64,000 bases of DNA from a virus (taxonomy: Duplodnaviria > Caudoviricetes): IMG/VR virus record IMGVR_UViG_2827231811_000003, positions 930 to 64,929 of that record. One strand, given 5' to 3'. Every line of letters starts with the position of its first letter. The stretch's first letter is position 1. The translations under genes and the position numbers were made by a program. Under the pieces are notes generated by a model, which saw only the letters and a program-made list of their open reading frames with translations, was not told the DNA's origin and did no database searches. Positions 1 through 64,000 of the stretch are shown here, piece after piece.

Positions 1-213
1 GGCGACGGCACCGCGGTGTCGCCGGCCTACACCACCACCGGCGAGAAGACCATCACGTTCACCCCGGCCAACGGGGCAGAACCGGTCACCGCGACGTTCA
101 CGCCGACCCTGGGCGGGGCACAGTCGCTCTCCACCGCATCCGGGTCGACCAGCAGCACGTCCGGCACCTCCGGAACCTCCGGCACGTCCGACAGCGGTGA
201 CACGAGCGCGTGA
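1..213 (+). CDS. 3' end of probable major tail protein (partial)
   Basis: Frame 1 is open from base 1 to TGA 211-213, overlapping the next GTG; T/S/G-rich tail; lies before the head-tail adaptor. Confidence 0.55.
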   Translation, partial: GDGTAVSPAYTTTGEKTITFTPANGAEPVTATFTPTLGGAQSLSTASGSTSSTSGTSGTSGTSDSGDTSA

Positions 214-1103
214 CCACGCCGCAGGACGCCCAGTGGGTCTCCCTCGCTGACGACTCGTCCAGCGAGGGAGACCTGCCGCGTCCACTGGTCGACGTCGACG
301 GCACGTGGGCGCTGCCCGCATCCGGCGGTTCTGGTCCGTGCCGAACCTGGCCACTCGACCCGTCGTGCGGATGCCTGCCCGACGATCCGGCCTCGTGGGC
401 ACCTGAACACCAGCGCGTCGTCGAGGCGGCCAGCGAGATCCTGTGGCGCCTCACCGCTGGACGGTTCGGCCTCTGCCACGACACCGTGCGCCCGTGCCGA
501 CGGAACTGCCTGCCGGACGACTGCTACGCCCCGCCGGCGACGTCCGGCCTGCTGCTGGGGAGCCGGTGGGTCAACATGGGCTGCGCTCACCAGCAACGCC
601 CGTGCGGCTGCGGCCCGGTCTCCGAGATCGCTCTCCCCGGCCCGGTGCACGTCGACGACGAACACCCGGTCGCCGTCCGCGTCGACGGCGCCCAGCTCGA
701 CCCGACGGTGTTCCGCCTGGTTGACGGCAACCGGCTGATCCGCGTCGACGGGCAGAAGTGGCCCGACTGCCAGGACTTCACCGCCGACCTGGACGAGCCC
801 GGTGCGTTCGGCATCGACTACTGGCGCGGCAACCCGGTGCCGCCCGGCGGTCGCCGCGCCGTCGCACTGCTCGCCTGCGAGCTGTGGAAAGCCTGCAACG
901 GGCTCGAATGCCAGCTGCCGAACCGCGTCGAACAGGTGCAGCGCGAGGGCGTCACGATGACGATGGTCAACTCGCAGGAGTTCCTGGAGCGCGGCCGCGT
1001 CGGCATCACCGAGGCCGACATGTGGCTGTCGTCGGTGAACCCGAGCGGGCTGCGCCAGCCGCCCGCCGTGTACAGCCCGGACCTGCCATCCGTCCGGTGG
1101 TGA
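210..1103 (+). CDS. Head-to-tail adaptor (actinophage cluster-B-like)
   Basis: Cys-rich; AASEILWRLTAGRFG and ALLACELWKAC..LPNRVEQVQREGV motifs as I recall them for this family. Confidence 0.7.
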   Translation: MTTPQDAQWVSLADDSSSEGDLPRPLVDVDGTWALPASGGSGPCRTWPLDPSCGCLPDDPASWAPEHQRVVEAASEILWRLTAGRFGLCHDTVRPCRRNCLPDDCYAPPATSGLLLGSRWVNMGCAHQQRPCGCGPVSEIALPGPVHVDDEHPVAVRVDGAQLDPTVFRLVDGNRLIRVDGQKWPDCQDFTADLDEPGAFGIDYWRGNPVPPGGRRAVALLACELWKACNGLECQLPNRVEQVQREGVTMTMVNSQEFLERGRVGITEADMWLSSVNPSGLRQPPAVYSPDLPSVRW

Positions 1104-1110
1104 CCCGGCG

Positions 1111-3280: not shown

Positions 3281-3436
3281 TCAGAACGGCAAGTCGTGGT
3301 CTGGCTCGTGACGGTGGTCCCGCGCCGCTCGAGCCAGCCACTCAGCCGCGCGCACCCGTGCCTCCGGGTCCAGCACGCTGACCCGCTTCCACAAGTCCTT
3401 CATGACCTCGATCTCCAGGTCGCCCATGCTCGTCAC
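3281..3436 (-). CDS. Small hypothetical protein
   Basis: GGAGGG before GTG 3436; helical 51 aa product. Confidence 0.4.
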   Translation of the reverse strand: MTSMGDLEIEVMKDLWKRVSVLDPEARVRAAEWLARAARDHRHEPDHDLPF

Positions 3437-3508
3437 GCTGTCGCACCCCTCCAGTTGGGCGTTCGATGGTGAACCGACATTCGACGCAGGGCGTGCTGTG
3501 CTCCGGGC

Positions 3509-3727
3509 ATGTCCCTGCTGGTGCTCTGGCTCGTCGTCGGACTCGTAGCCGCCGTCCCGGCGTTCGTTACGGTAGCGCTGACCTGGCATGTGCACCGATG
3601 TCGACGGCAGGCCGCCACTCGATGGGAGCGCATCCATGCGCCACTGCCTGCGGGGCCGTTGCCGACGCTCTACACCAACCCCGACCTGCCGCACGATGAT
3701 CCGCGGAGCCTGCCCTTCTGGGGCTGA
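3509..3727 (+). CDS. Small membrane protein
   Basis: Hydrophobic N-terminus LLVLWLVVGLVAAVPAFVTVAL. Confidence 0.4.
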   Translation: MSLLVLWLVVGLVAAVPAFVTVALTWHVHRCRRQAATRWERIHAPLPAGPLPTLYTNPDLPHDDPRSLPFWG

Positions 3728-4090
3728 CTACGCACTCGGGTCATCGGCGGGACGCGGTTCCGCCTCGATTTCTCGTTCCGTCTGCTGCTCTTGGTCGAGC
3801 TGCTTGGCGACGCGACCTACCTCGCGGATCAGCGCCTCGTAGTGCTCCAGCTTCTGCTGGACGCTGTCGAGCTGTTCGGTCAGCTCCTCGTTGCGTTGCC
3901 GTAGCTCGTCGCGTTCGCGAAGGAGGCCGGACTCGGACAGGGCTTCGAGCTGTTCCGGCGGCACGATCGCCATCACGGCATCCCCCCGGTCGGTCAGGAC
4001 GAAGGACCCTCCGCGGATCACGTCGCGCTTCACGTCCGACCTGTTCGTCACGAACTCGGACAATGTCATTTCCGTTGCTGTCGTACGCAT
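3728..4090 (-). CDS. Phd/YefM-like DNA-binding domain plus coiled coil
   Basis: TLSEFVTNRSDVKRDVIRGGSFVLTDRGDAVMAIVPPEQLE matches the Phd pattern; heptad-rich C-terminus. Confidence 0.55.
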   Translation of the reverse strand: MRTTATEMTLSEFVTNRSDVKRDVIRGGSFVLTDRGDAVMAIVPPEQLEALSESGLLRERDELRQRNEELTEQLDSVQQKLEHYEALIREVGRVAKQLDQEQQTEREIEAEPRPADDPSA

Positions 4091-4196
4091 AGGTCAAGAA
4101 TAACGAATCGTTCGACACGATCAACCGAGTCGTGTGTATCGAACGGTAGGGCTGCTACAGTAAGAACATTGGATAAGGTGTCATATCCGATGGGAA

Positions 4197-5381
4197 ATGA
4201 TCTTGGGTGACTCGAATCAACCGGTAGTACTTACAGGCGAAGTCGTGTCGTTCGATACGAACGACACGAACGACGAGTCGGACGTCGTGACTCGACTCGT
4301 GCTCGGATGGCTCCAAACGTTCGAGACGGCCAAGACGCGCAACGCCTATGCGTCAGACATCGGTCTCGAACCTGATGCACGACGGTGGCCCGGCGCCCCG
4401 CGCAACCCGCGCCTGTCGCCGCTCGCGTTCCTGCCGTGGATGCGCGACCGCGGCATCGACCCGCTCACCGTGACGCGCATCGACCTGCTCGCGTGGCTGC
4501 ACGCCCAGTCCGCAGCCGGACGGCCCACTACCACCCGGTCCCGACAGTTCTACAGCGTGTGCAGCCTGTACCGGTTCCTCCGCGGCGAGGGCGTCACCAC
4601 CGTCAACCCGAACGACATGGTGAACACGAAGACGATGAAGCTCACCGGCAAGGGCGGCGCCGAGCGCACGACCCGGCCGCTGACGGTCGCCCAGATCAAG
4701 GCCATGTTCACCGCCGTACGTCTCGACGGCACCGCCCACCGGGAGCGCAACCTCGCGATCCTCGGCGTGCTGTCGGCGACCGGCTGCCGCGCCGCCGAGC
4801 TGGTCGGTCTGGACCTCGACCACTACTGGCGCGAATCACCAGCAGGACCAGGGAAACTGCGCCTGCACCGCAAGGGCGGCAAGTGGCACACGATCACCGT
4901 GCCCGCGTACGAGGCCGACCTGATCGACGCCTACCTGCGGGTGCGCATCGACCCGCAGCAGAGCAACGAGATCGCCCTGCGCGGCGACGTGTCGAACCAG
5001 ACGTCGCCGCGCAGGGCGATGTTCACCACCCGCCGCGGCCAGCGCATGTCGGCGGACGTCATCCAGCCGATGCTCAACCGCATCGCTGCCCTGCCGACCC
5101 CGGACCACTCGAAACAGCTCGTGCGCGAAGCCTTCCGAACGCTGTCGCCTCTCATCGGCTCGATCCACCCGCACCAGTTCCGCCACGCCTACGCCGTCAC
5201 CGCTGCGCGCAACGGCCAGTCCGTCACCCAGATCCAGGCCGACCTGGGCCACGAATCGCTCACCACGACACAGCGGTACCTGTCGCAGGCCGCCGAAGAG
5301 GACGGGTCGGCCGCGCCGACCGTGTCGGCGATCTACCACGCGGGTGAGGAGCTGACGCTCCTGCCGAACGAGCACCCCTGA
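4197..5381 (+). CDS. Tyrosine recombinase (XerC/D-like)
   Basis: TGCRAAEL, HRKGGK, HQFRH and LGH..TTQRY catalytic set; true start may be downstream. Confidence 0.9.
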   Translation: MILGDSNQPVVLTGEVVSFDTNDTNDESDVVTRLVLGWLQTFETAKTRNAYASDIGLEPDARRWPGAPRNPRLSPLAFLPWMRDRGIDPLTVTRIDLLAWLHAQSAAGRPTTTRSRQFYSVCSLYRFLRGEGVTTVNPNDMVNTKTMKLTGKGGAERTTRPLTVAQIKAMFTAVRLDGTAHRERNLAILGVLSATGCRAAELVGLDLDHYWRESPAGPGKLRLHRKGGKWHTITVPAYEADLIDAYLRVRIDPQQSNEIALRGDVSNQTSPRRAMFTTRRGQRMSADVIQPMLNRIAALPTPDHSKQLVREAFRTLSPLIGSIHPHQFRHAYAVTAARNGQSVTQIQADLGHESLTTTQRYLSQAAEEDGSAAPTVSAIYHAGEELTLLPNEHP

Positions 5382-5408
5382 CCTGTCACGATGTGACCTA
5401 CATCCCGG

Positions 5409-5741
5409 ATGACGATGGAGAAGATCATGGACGAGAGGGAACAGCGCCGCCGCCAACGGCGGCTCTTCCGATCCCTGGCCTACATCAGCGACCTTGGCGC
5501 TGAGGAACACCTGCCGATGCTGACCTGGGTAGTCCCTGGCAACGAGGACACGTTGTACGGCTTCCCGAGTTCCGACTGCGCGGCGGACGAGCGGGACAAG
5601 GTGTTCCGCGCCTGGCGAGATGCCCTCGAGGAGGAGTTCCACCCCTACGGGGAGCACACCGTCGACCAAGGCACGTGGCAGACACGACTCCACGGCGATC
5701 TCGTCTACATCGTCGTGCGGAACATGCAGGCGGGAGTATGA
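5409..5741 (+). CDS. Hypothetical protein
   Basis: ORF preceded by the CCCGGATG motif; coupled to the next gene. Confidence 0.55.
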   Translation: MTMEKIMDEREQRRRQRRLFRSLAYISDLGAEEHLPMLTWVVPGNEDTLYGFPSSDCAADERDKVFRAWRDALEEEFHPYGEHTVDQGTWQTRLHGDLVYIVVRNMQAGV

Positions 5742-6028
5742 GTAGCACCAGCAACAACGGCGAGTCCGACATCTGGCGAGAGCTGGCGCTCCAGCTGCGC
5801 ACCACGCTGAGTCACATGGGCGTGGACATGGACCCGTGCGGCCCCGGCGAGCCGTACGACTGCGGTGAATCGTTCGGAATGCACTGCCTGTCCTACCTCG
5901 CCGCGATTCAGGCGCGAGCTGAGAACCACATCCAGCACATTCACCACGGGGACCCCGATGGTGTGGAGCAGGCGAACAGGCTTCTCGACCACTGGCGCTC
6001 GGTGTTCGCCGAGGAAGACGACCACTGA
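5738..6028 (+). CDS. Hypothetical protein
   Basis: GGAG SD and ATGA overlap. Confidence 0.55.
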   Translation: MSSTSNNGESDIWRELALQLRTTLSHMGVDMDPCGPGEPYDCGESFGMHCLSYLAAIQARAENHIQHIHHGDPDGVEQANRLLDHWRSVFAEEDDH

Positions 6029-6215
6029 GCCGTCATCAGCAGTGGTCGACAGCCTGGCCGTCCGGTACTGTCGGCTCCAGTTCTCCACTTACGTGGAGGT
6101 GAGCCGAGTTGGACGAAGTGCTGACCGGCTTTGTTCCTCAGCTCTCCACAGTCGTGGAGGTGTGAAGGCCCCGGACGTATCGGACGTCCGGGGCCTCGCT
6201 GCTTTCGAGGACGGT

Positions 6216-6497
6216 TCAGGACGGAGGCGTCGGTTCGATGTTCGAGCGGCGACCATCCATCGCGAGCGCACGTTCGTAGTGGTGCGCCGCAGCATCCCGC
6301 AATGCCTCGGTGACCCACGTCGGCAGGCTGTCCTGCCAAGGGCCGTAGTCCTGACGGGCTGGGTGGAGCTGCTGGGCAAGGTCGTACCGGATCGCGATCT
6401 CGGCGTTCGGGTTCAACCCTTCCGACTGTTGCAGCGATTTCCGCAGGTAGTTGATCTGCCGTATCCACGCGTCCGGGGCGGCGAGTTCGTCACTCAT
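6216..6497 (-). CDS. Hypothetical protein
   Basis: 93 aa ORF with natural-looking composition. Confidence 0.45.
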   Translation of the reverse strand: MSDELAAPDAWIRQINYLRKSLQQSEGLNPNAEIAIRYDLAQQLHPARQDYGPWQDSLPTWVTEALRDAAAHHYERALAMDGRRSNIEPTPPS

Positions 6498-6601
6498 GCC
6501 CGCGCACCATAGTCCGGCCCTGATCGAACTCCTGGGGTAGACCTCCCGCGAAGGTGGGGGCGTTCTGCGACGATCGTCCTCACCAACGAACAGGGGTACC
6601 G

Positions 6602-7477
6602 ATGCTGCGGATCACGACCGCAAATCTGCGGGATATCTACGATCCCGATCGTCCGGACGAGGAGCGCTGGGCGCGCGTCGAGGCCATGCTCGACACGATT
6701 CAGCCCGATGTGCTGGCCGTGCAGGAACTGATCGCCCGCGAGCCGGACAAGCGCGACGGCGCTGCGGACGCGCTGCGGAAGCTCGGCTCGGCACTGGGAA
6801 TGTCGTGCGAGGTCGACGGTGAGCCCGTGGTCGCGGTCGGTGGCGGAATCCATCACGTCGCAGTCCTGTGGCGTAGCGATCGGATCAGTGCCGTGCCCGG
6901 CACGGTGCAGCGGCTGGAGCGGTCTCCGGCCGGCATGTGGCACTCCTGCGTGGCCGTCGATCTCGACGTCAACGGCCACGCGATCAGGATTGGCTCTACC
7001 CACCTGTCGCCGTTCGACGGGCTCTCGCGGGCACAGGACGCACGTCAGGTGCACCGGGCGATGGCCCGGACGGCGGGGCCGTGCGGCCTGGTCGGAGGCG
7101 ACTGGAACAGCCTCAGTAGCGACGTGCAGTTCGACCCGGATCCGTATGCGCCGGCGATCGAGGCTGGCAGAACATGGGATCCGGATTGGGCGTACCAGTA
7201 CCGCGCCGACGGTGAGCTGGATCGGGACGCAGCGCGGTGGCTCGAAGGGCCGGGCGGAATGCGGGACTGCGTCATGCTCGCCGGGGGCGATTGGGCGCCG
7301 ACGGTGGGGCACGTGCCGGACGCGCATCCTCCGCGCCGCATCGATCGCTGGCTCGCTACCCCGGCGATGCCCGCCGCGGCGATCACCGATGTGCAGGTCG
7401 CCCCGCTCGATCTCGTGGGCGACGCATCGGATCACCGGCCGGTCGTGGTCACTGTCGACGAGGCACGTCTGCCCTGA
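6602..7477 (+). CDS. Endonuclease/exonuclease/phosphatase (EEP) family protein
   Basis: TANL, PDVLAVQE, GGDWNS, RIDRWL and SDHRPV motifs. Confidence 0.85.
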   Translation: MLRITTANLRDIYDPDRPDEERWARVEAMLDTIQPDVLAVQELIAREPDKRDGAADALRKLGSALGMSCEVDGEPVVAVGGGIHHVAVLWRSDRISAVPGTVQRLERSPAGMWHSCVAVDLDVNGHAIRIGSTHLSPFDGLSRAQDARQVHRAMARTAGPCGLVGGDWNSLSSDVQFDPDPYAPAIEAGRTWDPDWAYQYRADGELDRDAARWLEGPGGMRDCVMLAGGDWAPTVGHVPDAHPPRRIDRWLATPAMPAAAITDVQVAPLDLVGDASDHRPVVVTVDEARLP

Positions 7478-7486
7478 CCACGGTAG

Positions 7487-7906
7487 TTAGTTGCTCTCGC
7501 CGAAGTGCGCGGAGATCCAGGCGTCGGACGGTCGGGCGAGCCCACCGGTGGGGTCCCACGCGTCGTGGGTAACCACGCATCCGAGTCGACTTGCGAACTC
7601 GTCGAGGTTGTTAGCCCAGGGTGAGGGTAAGGCGGTCCAGACGCTGCCGTCGTCGCGGCGGTCGCCGATGCCTGCGGTGGCCAGCCATTCGACGAGCATC
7701 CACGCGGCCCCGCTGCGCGGATCGCGCGAGCTCTGGCTGTCCTCGAGGTCGGCGACCGGTGAGGCCACCGTCACCCGCCACCATCGATCCCTGGAATAGG
7801 CCGGAATCCAGGCCGGTGGGCGGCCGTTGATCCAGCCGATCTGCTTGTCGAGCGCGCTGCGCAGCACGGACAGCAGATCCGCACCGGGCTCGTTGCGAGT
7901 GGTCAT
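7487..7906 (-). CDS. Hypothetical protein
   Basis: ATG 7906 overlaps the upstream stop; Trp-rich 139 aa. Confidence 0.5.
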   Translation of the reverse strand: MTTRNEPGADLLSVLRSALDKQIGWINGRPPAWIPAYSRDRWWRVTVASPVADLEDSQSSRDPRSGAAWMLVEWLATAGIGDRRDDGSVWTALPSPWANNLDEFASRLGCVVTHDAWDPTGGLARPSDAWISAHFGESN

Positions 7907-8118
7907 AGGTGCAGATCTCCCTGTACATCGCCGACGTGGGTCACCGACCCGACCGAGCCGGAAACGGTGGTGTGGAACGTGGGGTTGTCGAGGCCCCGCT
8001 GGATCAGGTGGAGCAGCGCCTCGTCGCGGGTCAGTTCGTGCTGGTCGGCCCACTGGTCGACGGCGGCCAGCAGGGCGGCGTCCGGATGGATCGTCACGGG
8101 CGTGGTGTCCTCGTTCAT
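7903..8118 (-). CDS. Putative ribbon-helix-helix DNA-binding protein
   Basis: VTIHPDAALLAAVDQWADQHELTRDEALLHLIQRGL fits the RHH pattern. Confidence 0.5.
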   Translation of the reverse strand: MNEDTTPVTIHPDAALLAAVDQWADQHELTRDEALLHLIQRGLDNPTFHTTVSGSVGSVTHVGDVQGDLHL

Positions 8119-8158
8119 GGCGGCATCGTCGCACGTCGCCCGGCGAGTTCGGGCGTCG

Positions 8159-8530
8159 CTACTGGCTGTCGATCCAGCGTTGCATCTCGCGGCCGGTGAC
8201 CGCGCGTCCACTCGGCAACGTCACGACGCTGTCGGGGTCGAACTCGCTGTTGGCCAGGATGCGCATGGCCACGGCGTCCGCGGTAGTGATCTCGTAGCCG
8301 TGCAGCGTGTCCTGCGGCGGCTCGACCAGCTCGGCGTCGGTCGCGTCGTCCGTATCTCTATCGCGCTCTCGTCTGCGGTGGGCGTCATCGGCATCGAGGA
8401 GGAGATCTCGGGTGACGGGGTTCGCGGTGGCGAGATTCCCACCGCCCGCGGTGAAGATCTCACTTGGTGACCGGGTACGAGATGAGGGATCGGCGGTTCG
8501 GCGGCGGAACATCCGCAGCGGATTGCGCAT
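8159..8530 (-). CDS. Hypothetical protein
   Basis: 123 aa ORF heading a three-gene leftward unit. Confidence 0.5.
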   Translation of the reverse strand: MRNPLRMFRRRTADPSSRTRSPSEIFTAGGGNLATANPVTRDLLLDADDAHRRRERDRDTDDATDAELVEPPQDTLHGYEITTADAVAMRILANSEFDPDSVVTLPSGRAVTGREMQRWIDSQ

Positions 8531-8571
8531 GGAACGTCCTTGCCGGTCGGCGACGTAGGTGTCATAGCTGG

Positions 8572-8621
8572 CCGGGGGCGCGGTTCAACATGTGATCATT
8601 ACGGAGGGACCGCGCCCCCGG
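8572..8621. terminator. Stem-loop downstream of the tail/lysis operon
   Basis: Perfect 13 bp IR CCGGGGGCGCGGT (8572-8584) / ACCGCGCCCCCGG (8609-8621). Confidence 0.5.
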
Positions 8622-8674
8622 TAGCCGTGATCGTCGCATGGCCTGCCGACCCCAACCACGAACACCACCCGAGT

Positions 8675-9151
8675 TCACTCCTCCCGGTTGGTGGTCTCGT
8701 CCTCACGGTCAGCGGTGGTAGTGGCTTGTTCGGCACGTCGAGCGGCTTCGTGCGCCGCGTCGGAACGCAGCATCGTCAGCACCGCCGTGACCCCGGTACC
8801 GGCGAGCACGATCACCCCGCCGAGCGCGGTCTTCACCAGCTCGATGGGTTCGGTCACCGTCACCAGCACCACCATGGCGCCAATGGAGATGGCGAACAGC
8901 CCGGCCACGATGAGTACGCCCGTGCGCTGCCGTGCGGAGTTTCTCCCGTCCTGGCGGGACGGTTTCATCGTGTTCAGCAGAGCGGCGATGCCGCTGGTCA
9001 CCAGGATGACGATGATGGACAGGACGACCGCGCTGCCGGGGCCGATCACCCCCACGCCGAGCAGGATCAGCGCGGTGGTGACCGCGGCGAAACACGTCCC
9101 GAGCAGCCCCAGGCCGCTGCGCTGCTTCGTGTTCTCGCTCATGCGAGGCAT
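8675..9151 (-). CDS. Multi-pass membrane protein
   Basis: About four hydrophobic segments; last gene of the tail/lysis block. Confidence 0.6.
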   Translation of the reverse strand: MPRMSENTKQRSGLGLLGTCFAAVTTALILLGVGVIGPGSAVVLSIIVILVTSGIAALLNTMKPSRQDGRNSARQRTGVLIVAGLFAISIGAMVVLVTVTEPIELVKTALGGVIVLAGTGVTAVLTMLRSDAAHEAARRAEQATTTADREDETTNREE

Positions 9152-9172
9152 GGATTCCGTTCTCCTCGCAGG

Positions 9173-11024: not shown

Positions 11025-11255
11025 TCACTCCTTCCTGGCCACAGACGGCGTCACAGCCGCGTTGTCGTTCTGTCCGACGCCACGCCCGGCGAGTGCCTTG
11101 AGCAGGGCTAGCACGGCAGCCCCTCCGCCCACGCCCAGCGCAGCGGTCCAGTCCACGGTCAGCACGTTCATGGCGTCCAGACCGAGCACGCTCAGCGCGC
11201 CCTGCGTGAACGACGACACGACGCGCTCGCCGAGATCCTTGAAGTAGTTGGTCAT
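11025..11255 (-). CDS. Holin (r1t-like)
   Basis: LGERVVSSFTQG..DWTAALGVGGGAAVLALLK; follows the endolysin. Confidence 0.75.
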   Translation of the reverse strand: MTNYFKDLGERVVSSFTQGALSVLGLDAMNVLTVDWTAALGVGGGAAVLALLKALAGRGVGQNDNAAVTPSVARKE

Positions 11256-51052: not shown

Positions 51053-51089
51053 GACCGGCCCTCCTTCCCAATGAGTGCATTAGTGCAGG

Positions 51090-51272: not shown

Positions 51273-51275
51273 GAG

Positions 51276-52376: not shown

Positions 52377-52399
52377 TGGCTCTGCTCCCTCCTGCCGTC

Positions 52400-52478
52400 A
52401 ATCCCCCTGTCGTCAAGGGGGATTTACAATGACTGAGAGCGACAGTATGGTTACCCCCATTGCACTGTCAAGGGGGGT
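52400..52478. promoter_or_regulatory. Divergent tra/regulator promoter with two operator-like IRs
   Basis: ATCCCCCT..AGGGGGAT (52401-52423) and ACCCCC..GGGGGT (52453-52478), both containing GTCAAGGGGG. Confidence 0.5.
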
Positions 52479-52512
52479 TGCAGATGAGTTGGATGGGATG
52501 GAGGATCGCTAC

Positions 52513-54517: not shown

Positions 54518-54799
54518 GTGTCCCCCATGCACAGGGCCGACGTCTGCCGTCGGTGCGGCAGACGTTTCACGAATCACCATCGACACCACGGCCGCGGCCT
54601 CGACAACGCCTGTTGGACAGCCGCCGTCGCACGTGGCGAACTCGACCAATATCCGCAGGTCCGGCGCCGAATCGACCCCGACGAGCTGGACAAACTTGAG
54701 TCCCAGCAGCTCGACACAGCGACGATCGCGCTCCGCCTCGGCTTCACCACCACGGCGATCCGTCAGCGCCGCTCCAGGAGGCGCAGGGCCAGCCAATGA
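54518..54799 (+). CDS. Small HTH/Zn protein
   Basis: CRRC..H..C and TATIALRLGFTTTAIRQRR; CCCGGATGAAGGAG upstream. Confidence 0.55.
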   Translation: MSPMHRADVCRRCGRRFTNHHRHHGRGLDNACWTAAVARGELDQYPQVRRRIDPDELDKLESQQLDTATIALRLGFTTTAIRQRRSRRRRASQ

Positions 54800-55563
54800 T
54801 GGGCAGCAACCACGCGCTGTCCGGACTCGCCGCAGGGCTCGCCCTCGCCCCCGCCGTCGGGCTCACCGAGCCGACGCAGGTCATCCCGTTCTCGCTGAAC
54901 GTCGCCGGCTACGCCGTGTTCCCCGATCTCGACCACCCATCGTCTTCGGCCACACGCGTGCTCGGCTGGGTCGGCGAGAAGGTCTCGAACACGCTCCGCG
55001 CCACCTCCGCGTGGGTCTACGAGCGCACGAAGGGCAGCCGCGATGAACCCACTGGGGTTCACCGGCACCTGTCGCACACCTGGATATTTGCGCTGGTCGT
55101 GGGCGGAATCGCCACCGGACTCACGTTCATCACGCCGTGGGCCGCGCTCGCCGTATACCTCGTCGGCGCGATCCTGGCCGCCGACCGGCTCGGCGACTGG
55201 GTCGCCGTCCCCGCGGCCGGCGGCGCCGCGGCCGCCGGCATGGTGATGCTGGACGACCCGACCGCGCTCAGCTGGCAACTCGGCGCCGCCGTCGCCGCGG
55301 GGTGCATCGTGCACACGCTCGGCGATGCGCTCACCGTCTCCGGCTGCCCATTCCTGTTCGGCCTGCTGCCGTTCGAGATCCGCGGCGAGACCTGGTGGGA
55401 GATCCGCCTGCTCGGCCCGCTGTCGTTCCGCACGAACTCCCCGACCGAGCATCGCGTGGTGCGCCCGTTGCTGCTGGTCGCGACCGTCGTAGCGGCCTGG
55501 CCGGTCCTGCTCTCCCCGTTCCTCTCCCCCGTCCTCCAGGCATTCACGGAGATGTCCGCATGA
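54796..55563 (+). CDS. YdjM-like membrane metal-dependent hydrolase
   Basis: MGSNHALSG, PDLDH, HRHLSHT and HTLGDALT motifs. Confidence 0.8.
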   Translation: MMGSNHALSGLAAGLALAPAVGLTEPTQVIPFSLNVAGYAVFPDLDHPSSSATRVLGWVGEKVSNTLRATSAWVYERTKGSRDEPTGVHRHLSHTWIFALVVGGIATGLTFITPWAALAVYLVGAILAADRLGDWVAVPAAGGAAAAGMVMLDDPTALSWQLGAAVAAGCIVHTLGDALTVSGCPFLFGLLPFEIRGETWWEIRLLGPLSFRTNSPTEHRVVRPLLLVATVVAAWPVLLSPFLSPVLQAFTEMSA

Positions 55564-55814: not shown

Positions 55815-55870
55815 AGATGCCCAGAACAGCGCATGTCGGGATCACTCCCGATCGCGTGTTCTGGGCATCT
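55815..55870. repeat. Inverted repeat downstream of par operon (terminator and/or centromere)
   Basis: AGATGCCCAGAACA / TGTTCTGGGCATCT perfect 14 bp IR. Confidence 0.55.
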
Positions 55871-55946
55871 TGTGGTGCTGAAAGCTTCGGATGACGAAGC
55901 CGCTATATCTGGTAACCGTTCGGTCTGGTGATCTGGCTTGTGCAGG

Positions 55947-56363
55947 TCAGAGCAGTCGGCCGTCCTTGAGCATGGCGTCGTACTCCTCCTGGGTCTGCGG
56001 CACGGTGACACCCTCGCCGTCGAAGAAGTTCACCAGCGCTTGAGCGACTACGTCCTGGATGTCCATGTCGTTCTGCGCTGCGTAGGTGCGCACGATCCGC
56101 TTGAGCACGACGGGCATGTTGCAGTTGAACGAGCGCCACTCGAACGGATCGAGCTTCTTGTTCGTGCGCTTCCGGCGCCGCGGGAACCGCAGGACGTTCT
56201 CAGCGTCGCCGCTGGTCGGGGGCTGCTCTGCCGGTTCGGGTTCCTGCTGTGCCTGCTGGGCAGGAGCTGGTTCCGGCAGGGGAGCGGTGGCAGGTGTTTC
56301 CGGGTCGTCGCGCCAGGACCGGCCGGTGGCCAGCGGGCTCGGTTTCCGGTCGGCAGCCATCAA
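55947..56363 (-). CDS. ParA partner, ParG-like RHH centromere-binding protein
   Basis: Flexible N-terminus; C-terminal FNCNMPVVLKRIVRTYAAQNDMDIQDVVAQAL. Confidence 0.7.
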   Translation of the reverse strand: MMAADRKPSPLATGRSWRDDPETPATAPLPEPAPAQQAQQEPEPAEQPPTSGDAENVLRFPRRRKRTNKKLDPFEWRSFNCNMPVVLKRIVRTYAAQNDMDIQDVVAQALVNFFDGEGVTVPQTQEEYDAMLKDGRLL

Positions 56364-57196
56364 AGCGTCACCTCCGAGCGGGCCATGATGCGGTCGATGG
56401 CCCAGCCGTAGACCTCACCGGCCAGCACGCGCAGGCGAGCGTCCTTCGACTCGTCCAGCCCGACACCCGCGTTGATCTCCGTCTTGATCTTGTTCCACAA
56501 CGGCACCACCTTCGAGGTGTCCTCGGCCGACGCCCACACCTCGGCGTCCGGGAAGTGGCCGGCGATGTCGCCGAGCTTGTCCCTCTCGTCGCTGGTGCCG
56601 CGCCACTTCGAGATCAGCACGCCGGACCAGGCCAGCGACTTGTTGTTGTAGGAGCGGACCTGTTCGACCGTGTCCCGCAGCAGGGCCAGGCCCTGGGTGG
56701 ACCACCTGTCGGCCTCCATCACCACGAGGACCTGTTCGTCATCGTGCGCAGCCAGCGCGTTGACCAGCAGATATCCCAACGCCGGGGCGTTGTCGATCAG
56801 GATCAGGTCGAAGTCGGCGATCACGGGGGCCAGTGCCTCGCGCAGGCGGTACTCGCGGCCGTGCTGGGCGGCGCCGATGCGGTTCTGCGCGGTGATGAGC
56901 GTGTTCTCGTTGGTCACCGGGGCAAGCCACGTCCGGTCCCAGATCGTGTCGACGATGACGTCCTCGATGGAGATCGCGCCCTCCGGCACGATCGTGTCCG
57001 CGATCGAGACGGACGTGGGGGAGAGCGTTTCGACGCTGAGCGCGTCGGTGGTGTTGGCCTGCGGGTCCAGGTCTACGACCAGCGTTTTCAGGCCCTTAAC
57101 GGCCGCTGCGCGGGCGAGGTTGATGATGCTCGTGGTTTTGCCGACGCCGCCCTTCTGCATGGCGGCCGCGACGACGCGTGCCTGATTTTCAGGCAT
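56360..57196 (-). CDS. parA: ParA partition ATPase (type Ib)
   Basis: QKGGVGKTT, DLDPQAN and LILIDNAP motifs; no N-terminal HTH. Confidence 0.92.
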   Translation of the reverse strand: MPENQARVVAAAMQKGGVGKTTSIINLARAAAVKGLKTLVVDLDPQANTTDALSVETLSPTSVSIADTIVPEGAISIEDVIVDTIWDRTWLAPVTNENTLITAQNRIGAAQHGREYRLREALAPVIADFDLILIDNAPALGYLLVNALAAHDDEQVLVVMEADRWSTQGLALLRDTVEQVRSYNNKSLAWSGVLISKWRGTSDERDKLGDIAGHFPDAEVWASAEDTSKVVPLWNKIKTEINAGVGLDESKDARLRVLAGEVYGWAIDRIMARSEVTL

Positions 57197-57223
57197 GGCA
57201 GGTCACTTCCCTTCTTGAGTTGG

Positions 57224-57412
57224 TGGGCATCTGGTGTGCGTCTCATCTTGCCGTCTGGCGGCCGTGATCACGAGATGACCCCTGTGCGTAGAACCCCAGA
57301 TGTTGAATGTTCACCACTTCGGCCTATGGCGAGAAATGCTCATCTTTCGATACGAATGCCGTGACCTGCACGTAAGTACCAATATGAAAATCTTGTCATC
57401 TTGCTATCTGGT
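57224..57412. repeat. ATCTKG repeat cluster upstream of parA (parS candidate)
   Basis: GGGCATCTGG, CATCTTG, AATCTTG and TATCTGG copies. Confidence 0.4.
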
Positions 57413-57519
57413 TACTGCTGGTCAGCTCGCGGGGAAGAGGTTCACACGATCCGGCGGCGCGCCGGTGCGAACACCCAATCGGGTGGTTTAGCGGTTCTAG
57501 TGTGGCGTTCGTGGACGAG

Positions 57520-57876
57520 ATGACATGGATGACGTTGGTGCTCGCGGTCGGCACGGCCGCGCGCATCACGAGGCTGATCACCACCGACACGATCACCGAG
57601 AGCCTGCGTCATGCCGTCCTGTTCAGTCGGCAGCAGCGCACCGCGCTCGCCGCCGGTCAGCCCGCGCCACCCGCGGCACGGCCGCGAGTCGCGAAGGTTC
57701 GAGCCATGCTCTACAAGCTCGTGACCTGCGACTGGTGCGCCGGGTTCTGGGTCAGCGTGGCCGTCGCACCACTCGTGCTCTACGCCGACACGTCGTCGCC
57801 GTGGTTCATCATCCCGGCGACCGCGCTGACCCTCAGCTACGCCGTCGGGCTGCTCGCCAGTACCGAAGCCACGTAG
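57520..57876 (+). CDS. DUF1360-family membrane protein
   Basis: ARITRLITTDTI..LVTCDWCAGFW motif. Confidence 0.7.
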   Translation: MTWMTLVLAVGTAARITRLITTDTITESLRHAVLFSRQQRTALAAGQPAPPAARPRVAKVRAMLYKLVTCDWCAGFWVSVAVAPLVLYADTSSPWFIIPATALTLSYAVGLLASTEAT

Positions 57877-58009: not shown

Positions 58010-58384
58010 ATGACCGTTACCTCATCACCAGCCAACGAACACGAGTCGACGATCTACCTGGCCGACCTCGCCGCGGTAATCGCGCTCGACTCCATCGGCC
58101 GGTCGCTGACCCGGACGTTGCCACGGTCGGAACGGCACCCGATGTCGCGTGTGCGCTGCACCGACACGTGGGATCGACACCGACTGTTCAACGTGCCCGA
58201 GGAGCAGGTGGACCGGCTGCTGGAGACATCAGTTCGGCCGCTGGACCACGTGATGCCGCCCGATCACTGCCTCCGCACGTCCGTCGAGGAGTACGTCCGC
58301 ACCCTGGTGCGGACCAGACGGAGACACCAGCGCAGCGACCTCGTCGAACACCTCACCCGGTCTGGCTGTCTCGCCGACGAGTGA
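58010..58384 (+). CDS. Hypothetical protein
   Basis: GAAAGG SD. Confidence 0.5.
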   Translation: MTVTSSPANEHESTIYLADLAAVIALDSIGRSLTRTLPRSERHPMSRVRCTDTWDRHRLFNVPEEQVDRLLETSVRPLDHVMPPDHCLRTSVEEYVRTLVRTRRRHQRSDLVEHLTRSGCLADE

Positions 58385-58469: not shown

Positions 58470-60287
58470 GTGCCCGATCAGGCCGACGATCCGTGGCTGC
58501 CGAAGCGGCGCCGCGGCCGTATGCGGCTGATCCGCGCTGAACAGGCCATGAGCAGGGCCGCGCGGGCGGCGATGTCGAAGTTCCTCGACGCCGCCCGCGC
58601 GGCCATCCTCGGCGACACCACCCGCGCCGACGCCGGACCCGCCGACCTGCCCCCGAACGTCGACGTGTGGCCCGACCAGGCCGTGTGGAACGACGCGCTC
58701 GCGACGTGGATCGTCCCGGCCTCCGGCCAGATCTACTCCGACGGCTACTGGCAGGCCATGCCCGACGGCGCCCGCGACGAGCCGCGGCTGTCCGACCAGG
58801 ACTACGTCGACGCGCACATGCGCGACACCACCGAACGTCTCACCGGCGCAACGTGGCCCGACGAGGTGTACGAAGCCGTGCGCCGCGAAGTCGCCGACGG
58901 CCGCGACCAGCGCGAATCCATCCCCGAAGTCCGCAAACGCATCGCGAAGGTGCTGACGCTGCGGCACTGGGCCGGCTCCGCTGAGGTGATCTCGCGAACG
59001 GAGTCCATCGCCGCGCTCAACGCCGGCCACCACCAGGCCGGCAAACGTCGCCAGGAGGTGTTCGGCGAACGCCTCTTCAAGCAGTGGATCGCCACGAGCG
59101 ACGGCCGCACCCGCGACACCCACCGGGCCGCGAACGGCACCGTCGTGGCCTCCGACGACCTGTTCGTCATCGGCTCGTCCCGGCTGCGCTACCCACACGA
59201 CCCTCGAGGCCCGGCCTCCGAAACCGTCCAGTGCCGCTGCGTCCTGAACTGGGTCGACGAAACCGAGGTCGACCCCGAACAGATCCGCGACCAGCAGTTC
59301 GACCCGATCCAGACCGACAACCAGGGGAGGCCCGTCGTGGACACCACCGACGACCTGACCGCCACCGCCGCGCCCGAAGAAGTCGCCGACACCGCGGCCG
59401 CGGCGGACACGAGCACACCGGACGACCAGCCCGTAGTCGCCGACGGCGGACCGGGATGGGCCGACGCCGTCATCGCGTCCACCCCCGAACTGCCGCCAGG
59501 GGAGTGGTTCACCGACCCTGGACTGGACCAGTACGTCCGCGGCATCCGCATCACCGACGAGGGCCGGGTGTTCGGCCACATCGCCCCGTGGGACGTCGAC
59601 CACGAGTCCATGCCCGGCATCACCGCGCCCCGCCACGGCACCGCCGCCGCCTACGCCAAGTTCCACCGGCACCCGGTGATGACCGCCGACGGCGGCCGCG
59701 TGCTGACCGGGCCGCTCGCCACCGCCCGCCTCGGCGAACCCAAGGGGCATGCCGAGCTGACCGTGACGCTCCCCGACGTCATGGACCACTACGACGACCC
59801 GAGCTTCGTCGCCGCCGACGTCGTGGCCGGCGAAGACGAACACGGCATCTGGTGTGCCGGCGCGCTCCGCCCCGGCGTGACGCCGTTTCAGGTGCACATG
59901 CTGTCCCGCTACTCGATCTCCGGTGACTGGCGGAACGGCGAGCTGGTCGCGGCCTGCTCGGTCACGACGCCCGGCTTCAACAAGCCGAGCGCCGAGGCGA
60001 TCGCGGCCGCGGCCGCGGGCGACCCGTCAGGCGTGGGACAGCGCACCGCGCTGCCGTTCGAGGACCGGCCGCGGGCACAAGTCGCCGCCGACGGTCACGT
60101 GTCCGCGCTGGTCGCGGCCGGAATCGGCCACCCCGGCGACCCCGCACCGCCACCGGTCGACGGGTGGCGGCTGTACCGCGAGTTCCGGGCGGCCGAAGCC
60201 GCCGACAAGCGCATCACTGCCGCCCGACGGCGGTTGTCCAACCCCAGAGCTCTCGCCGCAGCCGCGCGAGTGAGGAAGGAGCAGTAA
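58470..60287 (+). CDS. MuF-like head morphogenesis / capsid maturation protease fusion
   Basis: KQWIATSDGRTRDTH and PHDP..ETVQCRC; C-terminal GRVFGHIAPW and GEDEHGIW. Confidence 0.8.
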   Translation: MPDQADDPWLPKRRRGRMRLIRAEQAMSRAARAAMSKFLDAARAAILGDTTRADAGPADLPPNVDVWPDQAVWNDALATWIVPASGQIYSDGYWQAMPDGARDEPRLSDQDYVDAHMRDTTERLTGATWPDEVYEAVRREVADGRDQRESIPEVRKRIAKVLTLRHWAGSAEVISRTESIAALNAGHHQAGKRRQEVFGERLFKQWIATSDGRTRDTHRAANGTVVASDDLFVIGSSRLRYPHDPRGPASETVQCRCVLNWVDETEVDPEQIRDQQFDPIQTDNQGRPVVDTTDDLTATAAPEEVADTAAAADTSTPDDQPVVADGGPGWADAVIASTPELPPGEWFTDPGLDQYVRGIRITDEGRVFGHIAPWDVDHESMPGITAPRHGTAAAYAKFHRHPVMTADGGRVLTGPLATARLGEPKGHAELTVTLPDVMDHYDDPSFVAADVVAGEDEHGIWCAGALRPGVTPFQVHMLSRYSISGDWRNGELVAACSVTTPGFNKPSAEAIAAAAAGDPSGVGQRTALPFEDRPRAQVAADGHVSALVAAGIGHPGDPAPPPVDGWRLYREFRAAEAADKRITAARRRLSNPRALAAAARVRKEQ

Positions 60288-60962: not shown

Positions 60963-60996
60963 GTGCACAACCGCTCGTGTTGTGTGGAGGCCCACG

Positions 60997-63048
60997 GTGG
61001 ATCACCTGACAGACCTGCTCAATCACGCCACCAGCGCGGAATCCGACGCCGGGCAGCAGCGCGTCCAAGAACTCATCGCGAAACTGCGCGAGATCCAGGA
61101 CGTCGACCTGTCCGAGCTGGAAACCGCGGCCACTGGCCGTTTCGAGGAGCTGTACGCCGAGGGCGAGTACGCGCCCGACCAGGTCAGCACCCTCGAAGCG
61201 TTGGCGGACGTGACCGACGCCGTACGCACGCTCGATCAGGAGCGAAAGCAGGCACGGGACGAGCAGGACCGTCGGGTGGGTGCGCTCGCAGACCGCGTGC
61301 GCACCACCACCGATGAGGCCGAGTCCGAACAGGACACCACCAACGCTGAGAGCACCGACGACGACGGCGCTGCCCCGACTGAGGAGGGAGGCGCCGCCGC
61401 ACCACCGGCCCAGCCGACCCTCGACAGCACGCAGCAGGACGCCGACAGCGGCACCGACGGGACCGAGGGCACCACACCTCAGATCCCCGAACAGACCGCC
61501 CGCGAGACGAGCACAGAGTCGGACAATCAGCCGATCGCGGCGTCCGACTCGACGCAGCGACCGAGCACGGCTTCGGCACTCAACTCAGCTCGCAGCAACA
61601 GCCCGGCCAAACAGGAGAAGAAGACGATGCTCACCTACAGCATCACCGCTGCCGCTGAGGTCCCGGACATGCCTTTCGGGAAGGCGCTCACCACGTCGGA
61701 GATGGCCGAAGCCGCGCTCGCTCGTTACGCAACGTTCCCCGAGGGGCAGCCGACGAACGGGCCGATCAAGGCGAACGTCGCCCGCATCACCCGCACCTTC
61801 TCGGCCGACGCGTCCACGACCGGGTCGGAAATGGCCGACGCGCAGATCATCGACAAGCTCGCCGACGAGACACGCCTGCCCGGCGGTTCGCTCGTCGCGG
61901 CCGCCAACACGGCACTGACCGCCGCCGACCAGGCCCCGAGCGTCGTCAACGACATCTGGTGCAGTCCATCCGAAGTGGACTGGAATTTGTGCCCGCAGAT
62001 GGCCACCACCGCCGGCATCCTGGACCTGCCCACCGCAGGTCTGCCCCGCCGCGGCGGCATCCGCTACCCGATCTGGGACCAGTACCCCGAGCAGCCCGAC
62101 GCGTGGCGCGGCACCGTCATCGACTACCCGGAGGCCGACCCCGCGCCGGACAACTCGATCGCGAACCCGAACTACTTCCACTCGGACGGCCCCGGCGGCA
62201 CGGCCAACCTCAAAACCTGTATCTCCGGGCCGTGCGTCAGCTGGGCAGAAGAGCGCATGTCGCTGGCCTACCTGTGCGTGACCAGCGACATTCTGCGCGA
62301 CCGCACGTTCCCAGAGCTCACCGAACGGTTCATCTCGGACGTGCTGATCCACCACCAGCACTACCTGAACTCGCACTGGATTCAGCGGATCTACAACCGC
62401 TCCGACGAGCTGCCCGCGTTCGACGTCGCCAACGCCCTCGGCTCGTCCGCCGAGGCCGTGCTCGACCGCATTCCGCTGCTGGTCACCTGGTTCCGCAACG
62501 CCTACCGCATGTCCGACACCCAGACGCTCGAGATCGTCGCGCCGGTGTGGTTCCGCGAATTCCTCAAGCGCGACATCGAGCGCAAGAGCAACCGGCCGCA
62601 CGGATCGGTGTCCAACGCCGAGGTGCAGGCCCTGTTCGCCGGGTACGCCTCGCGCGTGCAGTGGGTCTACGACTGGCAGGACCTCCCCAGCACCGCCGGC
62701 GCGGGCAACGCATCCGGCAAGGTCATGCCGGACTGGTCCGCCGACACGGGCAACGGCGGCTGGCCGAACGGCGTCGAGATGATCGCCTACCCAGCCGGGT
62801 CGTGGGTGCTGTTCCAGGGCAACATCCTGAACCTGGGCGTGCAGTACGACTACACGCTGCTCCGCGAGAACCGCTACTCGGCGATGTTCAGCGAGGACGC
62901 GTGGATGCTGCTGAACCGCTGCAACCGCTCGTTCCGACTGCGCCTGACCAACCTCTGCGCGAACGGCTCTGTCGGCCCGTCCCTGGCCGCCTGCCCGCCC
63001 GCCACGACCGAGCCCGCGCCCGCAGGCGACGGCTCGACCACGGGCTGA
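60997..63048 (+). CDS. Major capsid (hexamer-type) protein with N-terminal scaffold-like region
   Basis: Coiled-coil/acidic N-terminus; WCSPSE, LPRRGGI and VQWVYDWQ core; GGAGG SD. Confidence 0.75.
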   Translation: MDHLTDLLNHATSAESDAGQQRVQELIAKLREIQDVDLSELETAATGRFEELYAEGEYAPDQVSTLEALADVTDAVRTLDQERKQARDEQDRRVGALADRVRTTTDEAESEQDTTNAESTDDDGAAPTEEGGAAAPPAQPTLDSTQQDADSGTDGTEGTTPQIPEQTARETSTESDNQPIAASDSTQRPSTASALNSARSNSPAKQEKKTMLTYSITAAAEVPDMPFGKALTTSEMAEAALARYATFPEGQPTNGPIKANVARITRTFSADASTTGSEMADAQIIDKLADETRLPGGSLVAAANTALTAADQAPSVVNDIWCSPSEVDWNLCPQMATTAGILDLPTAGLPRRGGIRYPIWDQYPEQPDAWRGTVIDYPEADPAPDNSIANPNYFHSDGPGGTANLKTCISGPCVSWAEERMSLAYLCVTSDILRDRTFPELTERFISDVLIHHQHYLNSHWIQRIYNRSDELPAFDVANALGSSAEAVLDRIPLLVTWFRNAYRMSDTQTLEIVAPVWFREFLKRDIERKSNRPHGSVSNAEVQALFAGYASRVQWVYDWQDLPSTAGAGNASGKVMPDWSADTGNGGWPNGVEMIAYPAGSWVLFQGNILNLGVQYDYTLLRENRYSAMFSEDAWMLLNRCNRSFRLRLTNLCANGSVGPSLAACPPATTEPAPAGDGSTTG

Positions 63049-63097
63049 CGACGGGACTGATGACCGGTTGGGCGAGACCAGCAGAGAGGGGTGAACG

Positions 63098-64000
63098 TTG
63101 ACAGCGCCAGCGCCCGCGATCGTCCCGCGAATGCTGGTCCCGTCGCCGGAGGCGCCGGTTCCGCAGCGCTTCGGACTGCTCAGCACCGCCAGCGTCGTCG
63201 AAGGTGTCGACACGCACGAGCTGAACGGGATCGAGTACCTGGCGGTGTGCTCGACCCAGGTCGACCCGTACCCGGTAGGGCCGTGCCCACCGGAAACACG
63301 GCCGACCAAGCAGCCAGGGCAGACCATCAGCGGGTTCGCCGCCAGCCCGTTCGGCCTGTACGCCGCCGACGAGTGCACCCTCGGCCGCGACGAAACCGAG
63401 GCCCGTGGACAGCTGCGGCAGCGGCTCCTGCTCGGCGAGCAGGCAGCCGTGGAGCGCGTCATCTACGACGGCCGGTTCGGCGGCACCGGCGATGTCGTCG
63501 TGTCGCCGAACCTGCGTCAGCAGGCGCACGTCATCGAAACGCCCGCCGCTGGCGCGGATCCGGCCGACGCCGTGGGAGCTCTCGAGCACTGGCTGGCCAG
63601 CACCTACGGCGGAGCGGGCGTGATCCACGCGCCGCGGTGGATGGCGCCGCAGCTGCACAAGGCGGGCGCTGTCACCTCGGTGAGCGGGCCGCGCGCCACC
63701 ACGCTGCTCGGCTCGTCGGTCGTGTTCGGCACCGGCTACGACGGCTCCCCACCCGTGCAAGAGCCGGCGTTGGACGACACGCACCCGTGGCTGTACATCA
63801 CGCCGCCCATCACGATCCGCCGGTCGAACATCATCGAGCCCGCCTCGTGGACCACCGGCGCGTTCGACCGTCAGCAGAACCGCGGCCTTCTACTCGCTGA
63901 GCGCATCTACGTCGTGGACTGGCCGTGCAGCGTGGCCGCGGTCAAGACCAACTCGACGATGTTCGAACCGACCGCCCAAATCGAGGAGGCGCCGCTGTGA
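63098..64000 (+). CDS. Capsid pentamer-type protein
   Basis: RFGLLS, GEQAAVER, GVIHAPR, VVFGTGY and AERIYVV pattern; follows the major capsid gene. Confidence 0.65.
   Translation: MTAPAPAIVPRMLVPSPEAPVPQRFGLLSTASVVEGVDTHELNGIEYLAVCSTQVDPYPVGPCPPETRPTKQPGQTISGFAASPFGLYAADECTLGRDETEARGQLRQRLLLGEQAAVERVIYDGRFGGTGDVVVSPNLRQQAHVIETPAAGADPADAVGALEHWLASTYGGAGVIHAPRWMAPQLHKAGAVTSVSGPRATTLLGSSVVFGTGYDGSPPVQEPALDDTHPWLYITPPITIRRSNIIEPASWTTGAFDRQQNRGLLLAERIYVVDWPCSVAAVKTNSTMFEPTAQIEEAPL

Follow-up and report, generated by a model that had tools for sequence, protein, structure and literature searches.

A circular actinomycete virus genome joining siphovirus and partition genes with a putative pZL12-type transfer operon

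Introduction

The closest described counterpart of the element analysed here is pZL12, or phage ZL12 (GQ919031), a 90-kb circular element with tailed-phage, par and recombinase genes for which both transfer and plaques have been demonstrated (Zhong et al., 2010, as cited in PMC3583192 and PMC7157519). Its kind has thus been known since 2010; pZL12 itself has been termed a singleton without close relatives (PMC7157519), and pSLE1 (PMC4487206) and PhiNon1 (PMC5431353) are further published relatives of the pZL12 idea. Here we analyse a 64,000-nucleotide stretch of DNA (the window), bases 930–64929 of the 64,929-bp IMG/VR virus record IMGVR_UViG_2827231811_000003 (Duplodnaviria; Caudoviricetes; record GC about 68%), in which a five-gene leftward block around a TraB-like, FtsK-fold ATPase (P0001, the pump) stands beside tailed-phage and partition genes. 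With somewhat better than even confidence, we take the window to be nearly all of a closed circular 64.9-kb actinomycete phage-plasmid that carries virion and lysis genes of a siphovirus, a partition locus resembling type Ib and a pZL12-type transfer operon, and whose host is probably a filamentous actinomycete in or near the Pseudonocardiaceae. The element is a new and distant member of the pZL12 kind.

A second point of reference is the korA-tra-spdA-spdB-kilB region of plasmid pIJ101 (NC_001387), with a membrane-associated FtsK-like Tra, a divergent regulator, co-transcribed small membrane proteins, and a clt site in which G(C/A)AAC direct repeats accompany an inverted repeat (PMC3583192). 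Temperate actinophages kept as partitioned extrachromosomal prophages are exemplified by the Cluster A parABS mycobacteriophages (PMC7157519). The TraB-type pump operon described here recurs in phages and plasmids of mycelial actinomycetes, and standard domain models overlook it. To our knowledge, Cluster A phages lack a transfer module and infect non-mycelial hosts, and surveys of phage-plasmids have generally taken conjugation machinery to be absent. If the operon works, there would be phages able to spread without particles, which would change models of host range, lysogeny and gene flow in antibiotic-producing actinomycetes, and the operon would offer a compact system for studying how a one-protein DNA pump finds its cargo.

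A TraB-like pump and its operon

Genes were called by third-position GC (GC3) and named via Pfam, PHROGs and NCBIfam. An earlier, sequence-only reading of this DNA had taken the leftward block at 45960–52376 for a transfer operon built around a TraB-like FtsK ATPase with a C-terminal winged helix, and both the block, whose five genes all encode predicted membrane helices, and the described layout of the ATPase were borne out. P0001 (708 aa; 46736–48862, minus strand) has hydrophobic segments within residues 1–111, where the AlphaFold model (pLDDT 81) shows long N-terminal helices, followed by a motor with the Walker A motif GKSRSGKS and the Walker B motif IIEYDEA. Foldseek ranked the FtsK motor first among the fold matches of the model (E 2e-14), ahead of the TcpA coupling protein and EccC. 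Residues 638–700 are modelled as helix-helix-helix-strand-strand with a pLDDT of about 90, and a profile of 20 homologues, which aligns the Walker A and 'AGxHLxLAxQR' motifs with FtsK, has its C-terminus aligned with the winged helix of RPA32 (E 0.014). Sequence and model together support a TraB architecture consisting of a membrane anchor, an FtsK-fold motor and a winged helix. One homologue has been named an AbiEi-domain protein by NCBI.

The relationship with pZL12 became apparent from profile comparisons. A profile of close P0001 relatives aligned with pZL12.71c in hhalign with a probability of 96% and E 3.9e-9, over motifs that extend beyond the P-loop, and pZL12.71c likewise has no Pfam match. 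The family comprises 1087 cluster representatives at E ≤ 0.001; 9 of 28 distant members match PF01580 (FtsK_SpoIIIE), and a profile of distant members aligned with pIJ101 Tra over 304 columns (E 3.8e-15). These alignments support a distant homology of P0001 to pZL12.71c and, by way of the distant family members, to pIJ101 Tra. Among 50,697 GenBank phages, tblastn with P0001 gave no match even at E ≤ 5. In BFVD, the best viral match of the P0001 model was I4AZH4 (UniProt, an unnamed 853-aa protein), with E 5e-26 over 777 aligned columns at 16% identity; a sequence search with P0001 did not retrieve this protein, and the model comparison indicates that a phage in UniProt may carry a full-length P0001 analogue.

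The operon begins with P0003, a 366-aa multi-pass membrane protein (51276–52376), which is followed by a 60-aa two-helix membrane protein (51090–51272), by P0002 (702 aa; 48944–51052), which combines two membrane helices with about 400 low-complexity residues rich in Gly/Ser/Arg and a C-terminus that is conserved and coiled-coil, by the pump, and by a coiled-coil protein with a central membrane segment (45960–46739, with a likely ATG start at 46610); all lie on the minus strand. A GC peak in another codon position had raised the suspicion of a frameshift in 48944–51052, which the Gly/Ser/Arg codon composition accounts for. In pZL12, the genes run leftward in the corresponding order, with 73c (398 aa, multi-pass membrane protein), 72c (766 aa, membrane helices and a Gly/Ser-rich stretch) and 71c (725 aa, FtsK-like), and there, too, a divergently transcribed regulator is present, further on; pZL12 had been invoked by the sequence-only reading as a precedent for the concept. 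The arrangement is also conserved elsewhere: a simple open reading frame (ORF) walk succeeded in eight related loci, and in these the pump gene is immediately preceded by a gene for a protein of 520–770 aa with one or two membrane segments and 36–45% Gly/Ser/Arg/Thr/Asn, and this pairing occurs in phage, prophage and plasmid loci. A small two-helix or larger multi-pass membrane protein often precedes the Gly/Ser-rich partner, the P0002 C-terminus is detectably conserved in five loci, and in the related locus L009 the pump gene is followed by a homologue of the gene that closes the block.

The two known systems also differ from the window in several respects. BLAST overlap with pZL12 is limited to the lysin, WhiB and the ParA P-loop; pZL12 is 90 kb rather than 65 kb, pairs its ParA with a classical ParB instead of a ribbon-helix-helix-like partner, has a GntR regulator and carries unlike virion genes. 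The pump gene of pIJ101 opens its operon instead of standing fourth, the regulator there is of the GntR type, and phage genes are absent.

Divergently from the operon, a promoter region with GTCAAGGGGG-type repeats is followed by a gene on the plus strand (52377–53367 for both, with a probable ATG start at 52513), whose 284-aa product has a helix-turn-helix (HTH)-like stretch that matches sigma factors weakly (E 0.05). A GC-rich hairpin immediately 3' of the pump gene is enclosed by inverted (CAAAC)n/(GTTTG)n arrays (46636–46733, no strand assigned), with AACAAACACAACAAACAAACA and its inverted partner flanking the hairpin immediately past the pump stop codon. The exact word CAAACAAAC is unique to this site within the window, and the array arms, though not the centre, are conserved in two related loci, L008 and L009, whose pumps are 34–38% identical. 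A strict (NAAAC)x3 pattern was found in L008 and L009 only and was absent from pZL12 and pSLE1. The arrays resemble the direct repeats of the pIJ101 clt.

Several results weigh against reading this block as a pZL12-type transfer operon. The conjugation module had been called Streptomyces-type, which for the pump holds in architecture and remote homology but not as close membership, as P0001 did not match PF01580 at E ≤ 10; it also matched none of the NCBIfam models, and aligned directly with pIJ101 Tra only weakly (probability 53%). BLASTP of P0002 and P0003 against pZL12.72c and pZL12.73c was not significant, and the partner proteins have no significant similarity to Spd proteins; the ESM-Atlas neighbours of P0003 are auto-named DUF2637 and, lower down, SpdB_N, which we treat as a lead only. 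The divergent gene, which had been read as an HTH regulator of the operon, does encode an HTH-like stretch, but its product is not a GntR protein, unlike the KorA/TraR repressors of Streptomyces tra loci. The candidate cis site is kept in 2 of about 24 related loci, and the inverted arrays could equally be a clt-like site or a bidirectional terminator. That pZL12.71c–73c are the experimentally defined tra genes is something we infer from annotation and secondary citation. Finally, the pump family also occurs in integrating prophages and is thus not bound to plasmid life.

If the block is nevertheless a transfer operon, the following mechanism may be envisaged. The membrane-anchored FtsK-fold ATPase would form a ring, and its C-terminal winged helix would dock on a cis site, for which the inverted (CAAAC)n arrays just downstream of the pump gene are the candidate. 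The ring would pump unprocessed double-stranded DNA of the element over hyphal contacts or septal cross-walls, with the four co-transcribed membrane proteins making up a Spd-like spreading complex. In this scheme the element would be maintained as a partitioned plasmid, travel from hypha to hypha in capsid-free form, and exit as particles if its rearranged packaging genes function. The three lifestyles that the sequence-only reading had proposed, plasmid maintenance, hyphal conjugation and lytic spread, stay at the level of inference. A bolder proposal, which we regard as possible rather than probable, is that the Pfam-invisible pump family and its Gly/Ser-rich partner form a distinct and widespread actinomycete branch of double-stranded DNA transfer that is exchanged by plasmids and temperate phages, that it provides a capsid-free hyphal route here alongside partitioning and lytic release, and that the (CAAAC)n arrays are its docking site.

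Occurrence of the pump family

Members of the pump family were found in nine IMG/VR contigs, in a Glycomyces tenuis prophage with a tape measure gene 12 kb away, in contigs of Micromonospora, Salinispora, Actinoplanes, Stackebrandtia, Amycolatopsis and Nocardioides, in the Kutzneria buriramensis plasmid pKutB-C3 (NZ_CP144378), and in pGBA129-24a (NZ_CP016078.1; L023 and L024), a circular 59-kb molecule of Actinoalloteichus sp. GBA129-24. All named hosts are mycelial genera or close relatives. The pumps of pKutB-C3 and pGBA129-24a belong to the same family (28–37% identity) and have the Gly/Ser-rich membrane partner directly upstream, as in the window. Both molecules differ from the window: a Pfam census of pKutB-C3 gave Prim-Pol, ParA, ParB, relaxase, MobC and NikA and no phage structural domain, and pGBA129-24a is organised as a canonical siphovirus that encodes a serine integrase and lacks an annotated ParA. 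Although deposited as a plasmid, pGBA129-24a comprises an entire siphovirus genome, in which the pump cassette accompanies genes for a serine recombinase, terminase, portal, capsid, tape measure protein, lysin and holin; its pump follows the lysis genes and adjoins a gene for a YdjM-type hydrolase. A gene of this type, for a membrane-bound metal-dependent hydrolase (PF04307, E 4e-16), lies at 54796–55563 (plus strand) in the window and neighbours the pump again in L001, L009, L023 and L037. The sequence-only reading had suggested that the pairing of the transfer module with a hexamer-type virion might be new; the case for this is weak, as two IMG/VR contigs of the same capsid type, G003 and G016, carry the pump too. 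Judged by its distribution, the pump cassette is a mobile accessory module common to plasmids and phages of mycelial actinomycetes.

This distribution bears on a rival explanation in which the FtsK-like block acts inside the host, either by pumping element DNA over sporulation or vegetative septa, which would leave a copy in each compartment or spore, or in membrane superinfection exclusion or defence. Such a role would be in keeping with FtsK as the best fold match, with the septation-acting SsgA-like and WhiB proteins that the element encodes, and with the accessory nature of the cassette in the capsid lineage of the window, in which the pump is rare (1 of 23 records); FtsK/SpoIIIE-like genes are also known from lytic Streptomyces phages, where they have been discussed in the context of host development (PMC13587820). 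Against it stand the presence of the family on pKutB-C3, a true plasmid that also carries mobilisation genes, its homology to pZL12.71c and, through distant members, to pIJ101 Tra, and the conserved membrane partners with which the pump travels, as in tra-spd loci. As the cassette is spread over plasmids and phages, a role in DNA transfer fits better than a phage-specific role, and we consider the in-host explanation unlikely, while keeping it in view.

Integrity of the molecule

Among the outcomes that would refute it, the sequence-only reading had named a chimeric contig and a tra block that had integrated as an element of its own, bounded by att sites. In the corresponding rival explanation, the contig would be chimeric, or the region at 32–58 kb would be an integrated actinomycete integrative and conjugative element (AICE) or plasmid inside a prophage. 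Three observations speak for it: the region carries an integrase gene at its left edge, it separates portal and MuF genes that are adjacent in relatives, and IMG/VR classes the record as linear and 53% complete (CheckV). The completeness figure is probably an underestimate caused by larger relatives, because capsid homologues sit on contigs of up to 120 kb.

The ends of the contig argue for closure. The final gene, of the phrog_779 family, stops precisely at the contig end, and when the end is joined to the start, GAGGAG is followed after 8 bases by a GTG that overlaps the upstream TGA and opens an uninterrupted 380-aa frame (GC3 0.93), which encodes the major tail protein (phrog_792, E 2e-58). 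One contig of the public run X1 runs on for 1573 nt after the contig end, a second X1 contig of 7568 nt bridges the ParA, MuF and capsid genes and thereby the right junction of the 32–58 kb region, and depth is even across 44–64 kb. Run X3, from a second study and with another organism label, has pieces at least 99% identical to the candidate initiator, pump, ParA and capsid genes at similarly low depth, and contains both parts at equal depth; as X1 and X2 are possibly the source sample, X3 is the sole independent run.

Exact words were compared between both borders of the 32–58 kb region, and between each integrase flank and the rest of the window. No direct repeats beyond chance length were found, the longest shared words being 11–14 nt (chance 11.0–13.4), and the exact-word search gave no att-like repeats around the transfer block; the contig has no host flanks. 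Furthermore, nine AT-rich early boxes, GTTAWGATRATTATAT, head rightward operons within 19663–43653 (all on the plus strand; 0.01 expected), and these lie at 19.7–23.0 kb and at 34.1–43.6 kb, both outside and inside the questioned region. Because the boxes flank the packaging block on both sides and the borders share only chance-length words, we conclude that the 32–58 kb region is not a separate insert. AICEs are defined by Int, a Rep of the RepSA, RepAM or Prim-Pol type, Tra, short length and att repeats, usually at a tRNA gene. Among the window proteins scanned with Pfam and NCBIfam, no RepSA, RepAM or Prim-Pol was found; since such Rep types and att-like repeats were not found, and since the block lies in a 65-kb circle with phage genes, the transfer block is not an AICE. 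Megablast of 38–58 kb gave no match to phages and, among plasmids, only a 44-nt ParA match.

The chimera or separate-insert explanation is therefore largely refuted, and what probability we still grant it is very small. The window belongs to a single closed, non-chimeric circular molecule, on which, as the sequence-only reading had it, virion and lysis genes coexist with partition and transfer-type modules. A circular plasmid state is likely, with the reservation that a permuted, terminally redundant virion genome would assemble identically.

Plasmid-type genes and the early region

The partition locus, including its flanking repeats, spans 55860–57412. It encodes a small ParA (56360–57160, minus strand; AAA_31, E 5e-35) and, overlapping it, a 138-aa partner (55947–56363, minus strand), and it is bordered by NATCT[GT]G repeats at 55866–55930 and 57228–57405; 8 of the 38 plus-strand words of this type in the window lie within about 300 nt on either side of the par operon. 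The pairing of ParA with a ribbon-helix-helix partner, as previously read from this DNA, is thus solid for ParA but less so for the partner, which was assigned by eye from a strand-helix-helix pattern in its C-terminus and whose sole database support is a non-significant CopG match (E 1.3) over the same residues. We propose a type-Ib-like locus, in which the partner of the small ParA would be a centromere binder of the ribbon-helix-helix-like kind and short repeats lie on both sides.

A Rep with iterons had also been claimed. The repeats exist: the candidate initiator ORF at 44495–45484 (plus strand) contains four copies of a hairpin repeat, one at about 45030 and three 24-bp copies at 45152–45222, and two copies of a 15-bp repeat at 45243–45272. 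The Rep identity fared less well, as the protein has no match in Pfam, PHROG, NCBIfam or the Protein Data Bank (PDB), and an ESM-Atlas resemblance to HTH_36 is the sole lead; it is the weakest of our assignments, an unverified candidate. The ParA partner and the product of the HTH-like gene likewise had no significant match in PDB sequence searches.

Each of two tyrosine recombinase genes marks a break in the phage gene order. The first (4197–5381, plus strand; PF00589, E 3e-18; phrog_1) lies between the head-connector genes and the inverted tail block, the second (32658–34034, plus strand; PF00589, E 7e-14; phrog_1) directly after the displaced portal block. A gene resembling Phd/YefM antitoxins (3728–4063, minus strand; E 1e-6, just under the Pfam cut-off) adjoins the first recombinase gene, and no toxin partner was identified for it. 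Two genes that each follow an early box encode an SsgA-like protein (42644–43063; PF04686, E 6e-23) and a WhiB protein (43674–44000; PF02467, E 2e-23), families with roles in septation and sporulation in mycelial actinomycetes.

The HTH-like gene next to the transfer operon is followed, within 52513–54431, by a gene for a 350-aa protein without known family, whose N-terminus (NEDW...VVLDGVSAP), judged by eye, resembles a motif of PP2C phosphatases; on the Micromonospora contig L036, a homologue with 40% identity is found close to a ParA homologue, some 8 kb upstream of the pump. This protein, the HTH-like product, P0002 and P0003 all lack a Pfam, PHROG or NCBIfam match, and a homologue search with P0003 gave a single relative, which does not suffice for a profile.

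Virion, packaging and lysis genes

The virion genes are those of a siphovirus with a hexamer-type capsid, and their homologues occur in Gordonia phage Clown and in G003 and G016, which share the capsid hexamer protein, the phrog_779 gene, the major tail protein, the adaptor, portal, MuF and tail genes. At the right end of the window, on the plus strand, the MuF-like protein (58470–60287; PF04233), the 688-aa capsid hexamer protein (60982–63048; phrog_777, E 3e-95) and the conserved phrog_779 gene (63131–64000; E 5e-51) are encoded, preceded by a DUF1360 membrane-protein gene (57502–57876) and a small gene before MuF (58010–58384). Across the junction, this series continues with the 3' part of the major tail protein gene (1–213), which begins at the junction GTG, and the head-tail adaptor (210–1103; phrog_783, E 2e-72), both on the plus strand. 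The phage matches of the capsid protein are annotated as 'major capsid hexamer protein'; it is 24–29% identical to these proteins of Gordonia and Microbacterium phages, and 36–61% identical to metagenome proteins and one Amycolatopsis protein. The tail block (12786–19377, minus strand; phrog_837, phrog_838, PF10145 with E 7e-49 and PF23781 listed for the block) comprises minor tail proteins, the tape measure protein (15365–18013) and two tail assembly chaperones, and beyond it, also on the minus strand, lie genes for an amidase lysin (11269–12225), a holin-like 76-aa membrane protein (11025–11255) and a GDPD-like protein (9173–11020).

The packaging block (28376–32012, plus strand; phrog_6299 listed for the block) consists of the small terminase subunit TerS (28376–28921), the large terminase subunit TerL (28925–29728; PF03237, E 1e-17), a coupled 270-aa gene without family match (29725–30537) and the portal (30534–32012; phrog_776, E 6e-106). 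The large terminase thus appears in pieces, with TerL confined to the ATPase domain, the coupled 270-aa gene, and a separate 196-aa gene on the opposite strand (26200–26790, minus strand; phrog_27743), which has a weak Terminase_6C match (E 0.004).

In Clown, G003 and G016, the genes run in one direction in the canonical order of membrane protein, portal, small gene, MuF, capsid, tail protein, adaptor, chaperones and tape measure. In the window, by contrast, 26 kb separate the TerS-TerL-portal block from MuF, and the tail block points the opposite way to the head genes; compared with these relatives, the displaced block has moved out of the interval between the DUF1360 gene and the small gene before MuF. 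Each rearrangement break (compared regions 3281–9191 and 28376–34034) adjoins one of the tyrosine recombinase genes. Clown also differs from the window in having no pump, and G003 and G016 in having no match to its ParA. G016 has a 127-bp terminal repeat.

These features have to be weighed in view of another explanation, namely that the element is a conjugative or partitioned plasmid with a decaying, rearranged prophage, which forms no particles and for which the plasmid and transfer routes alone are real. The truncation of TerL after its ATPase domain, the nuclease-like pieces in separate genes, the displaced packaging block and the inverted tail block, each break lying beside a recombinase gene, all speak for such a remnant. 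Decay is less easily reconciled with the state of the virion genes, as all those examined are open and high in GC3, with the shared motif of the leftward operons described below, and with the identical copy of the element in the second study (X3). We regard a decayed prophage as improbable and keep to the phage-plasmid reading, in which particles would form only if the rearranged virion modules and a TerL that ends after the ATPase domain still work.

The 17-bp motif GGCCACGATTTCGCCAG is present in three exact copies, at 18046, 19414 and 28153 (0.29 expected), each just upstream of a leftward operon, namely the tape measure, the tail chaperone and the DAM-like/GNAT-nuclease-ParB-like operon; no reverse-strand copies precede the rightward head or packaging blocks. 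The shared motif suggests that co-regulation of the leftward virion and packaging-linked operons has been retained.

The last of these operons encodes a DAM-like domain fused to a phage GNAT-like domain (26787–28118, minus strand; PF22555, E 4e-91; PF22559, E 4e-52) and a ParB-like nuclease-type protein (25304–26203, minus strand; phrog_7405). A tRNA-Gly(CCC) gene (28182–28254, minus strand) lies between this leftward DNA-modification operon and TerS.

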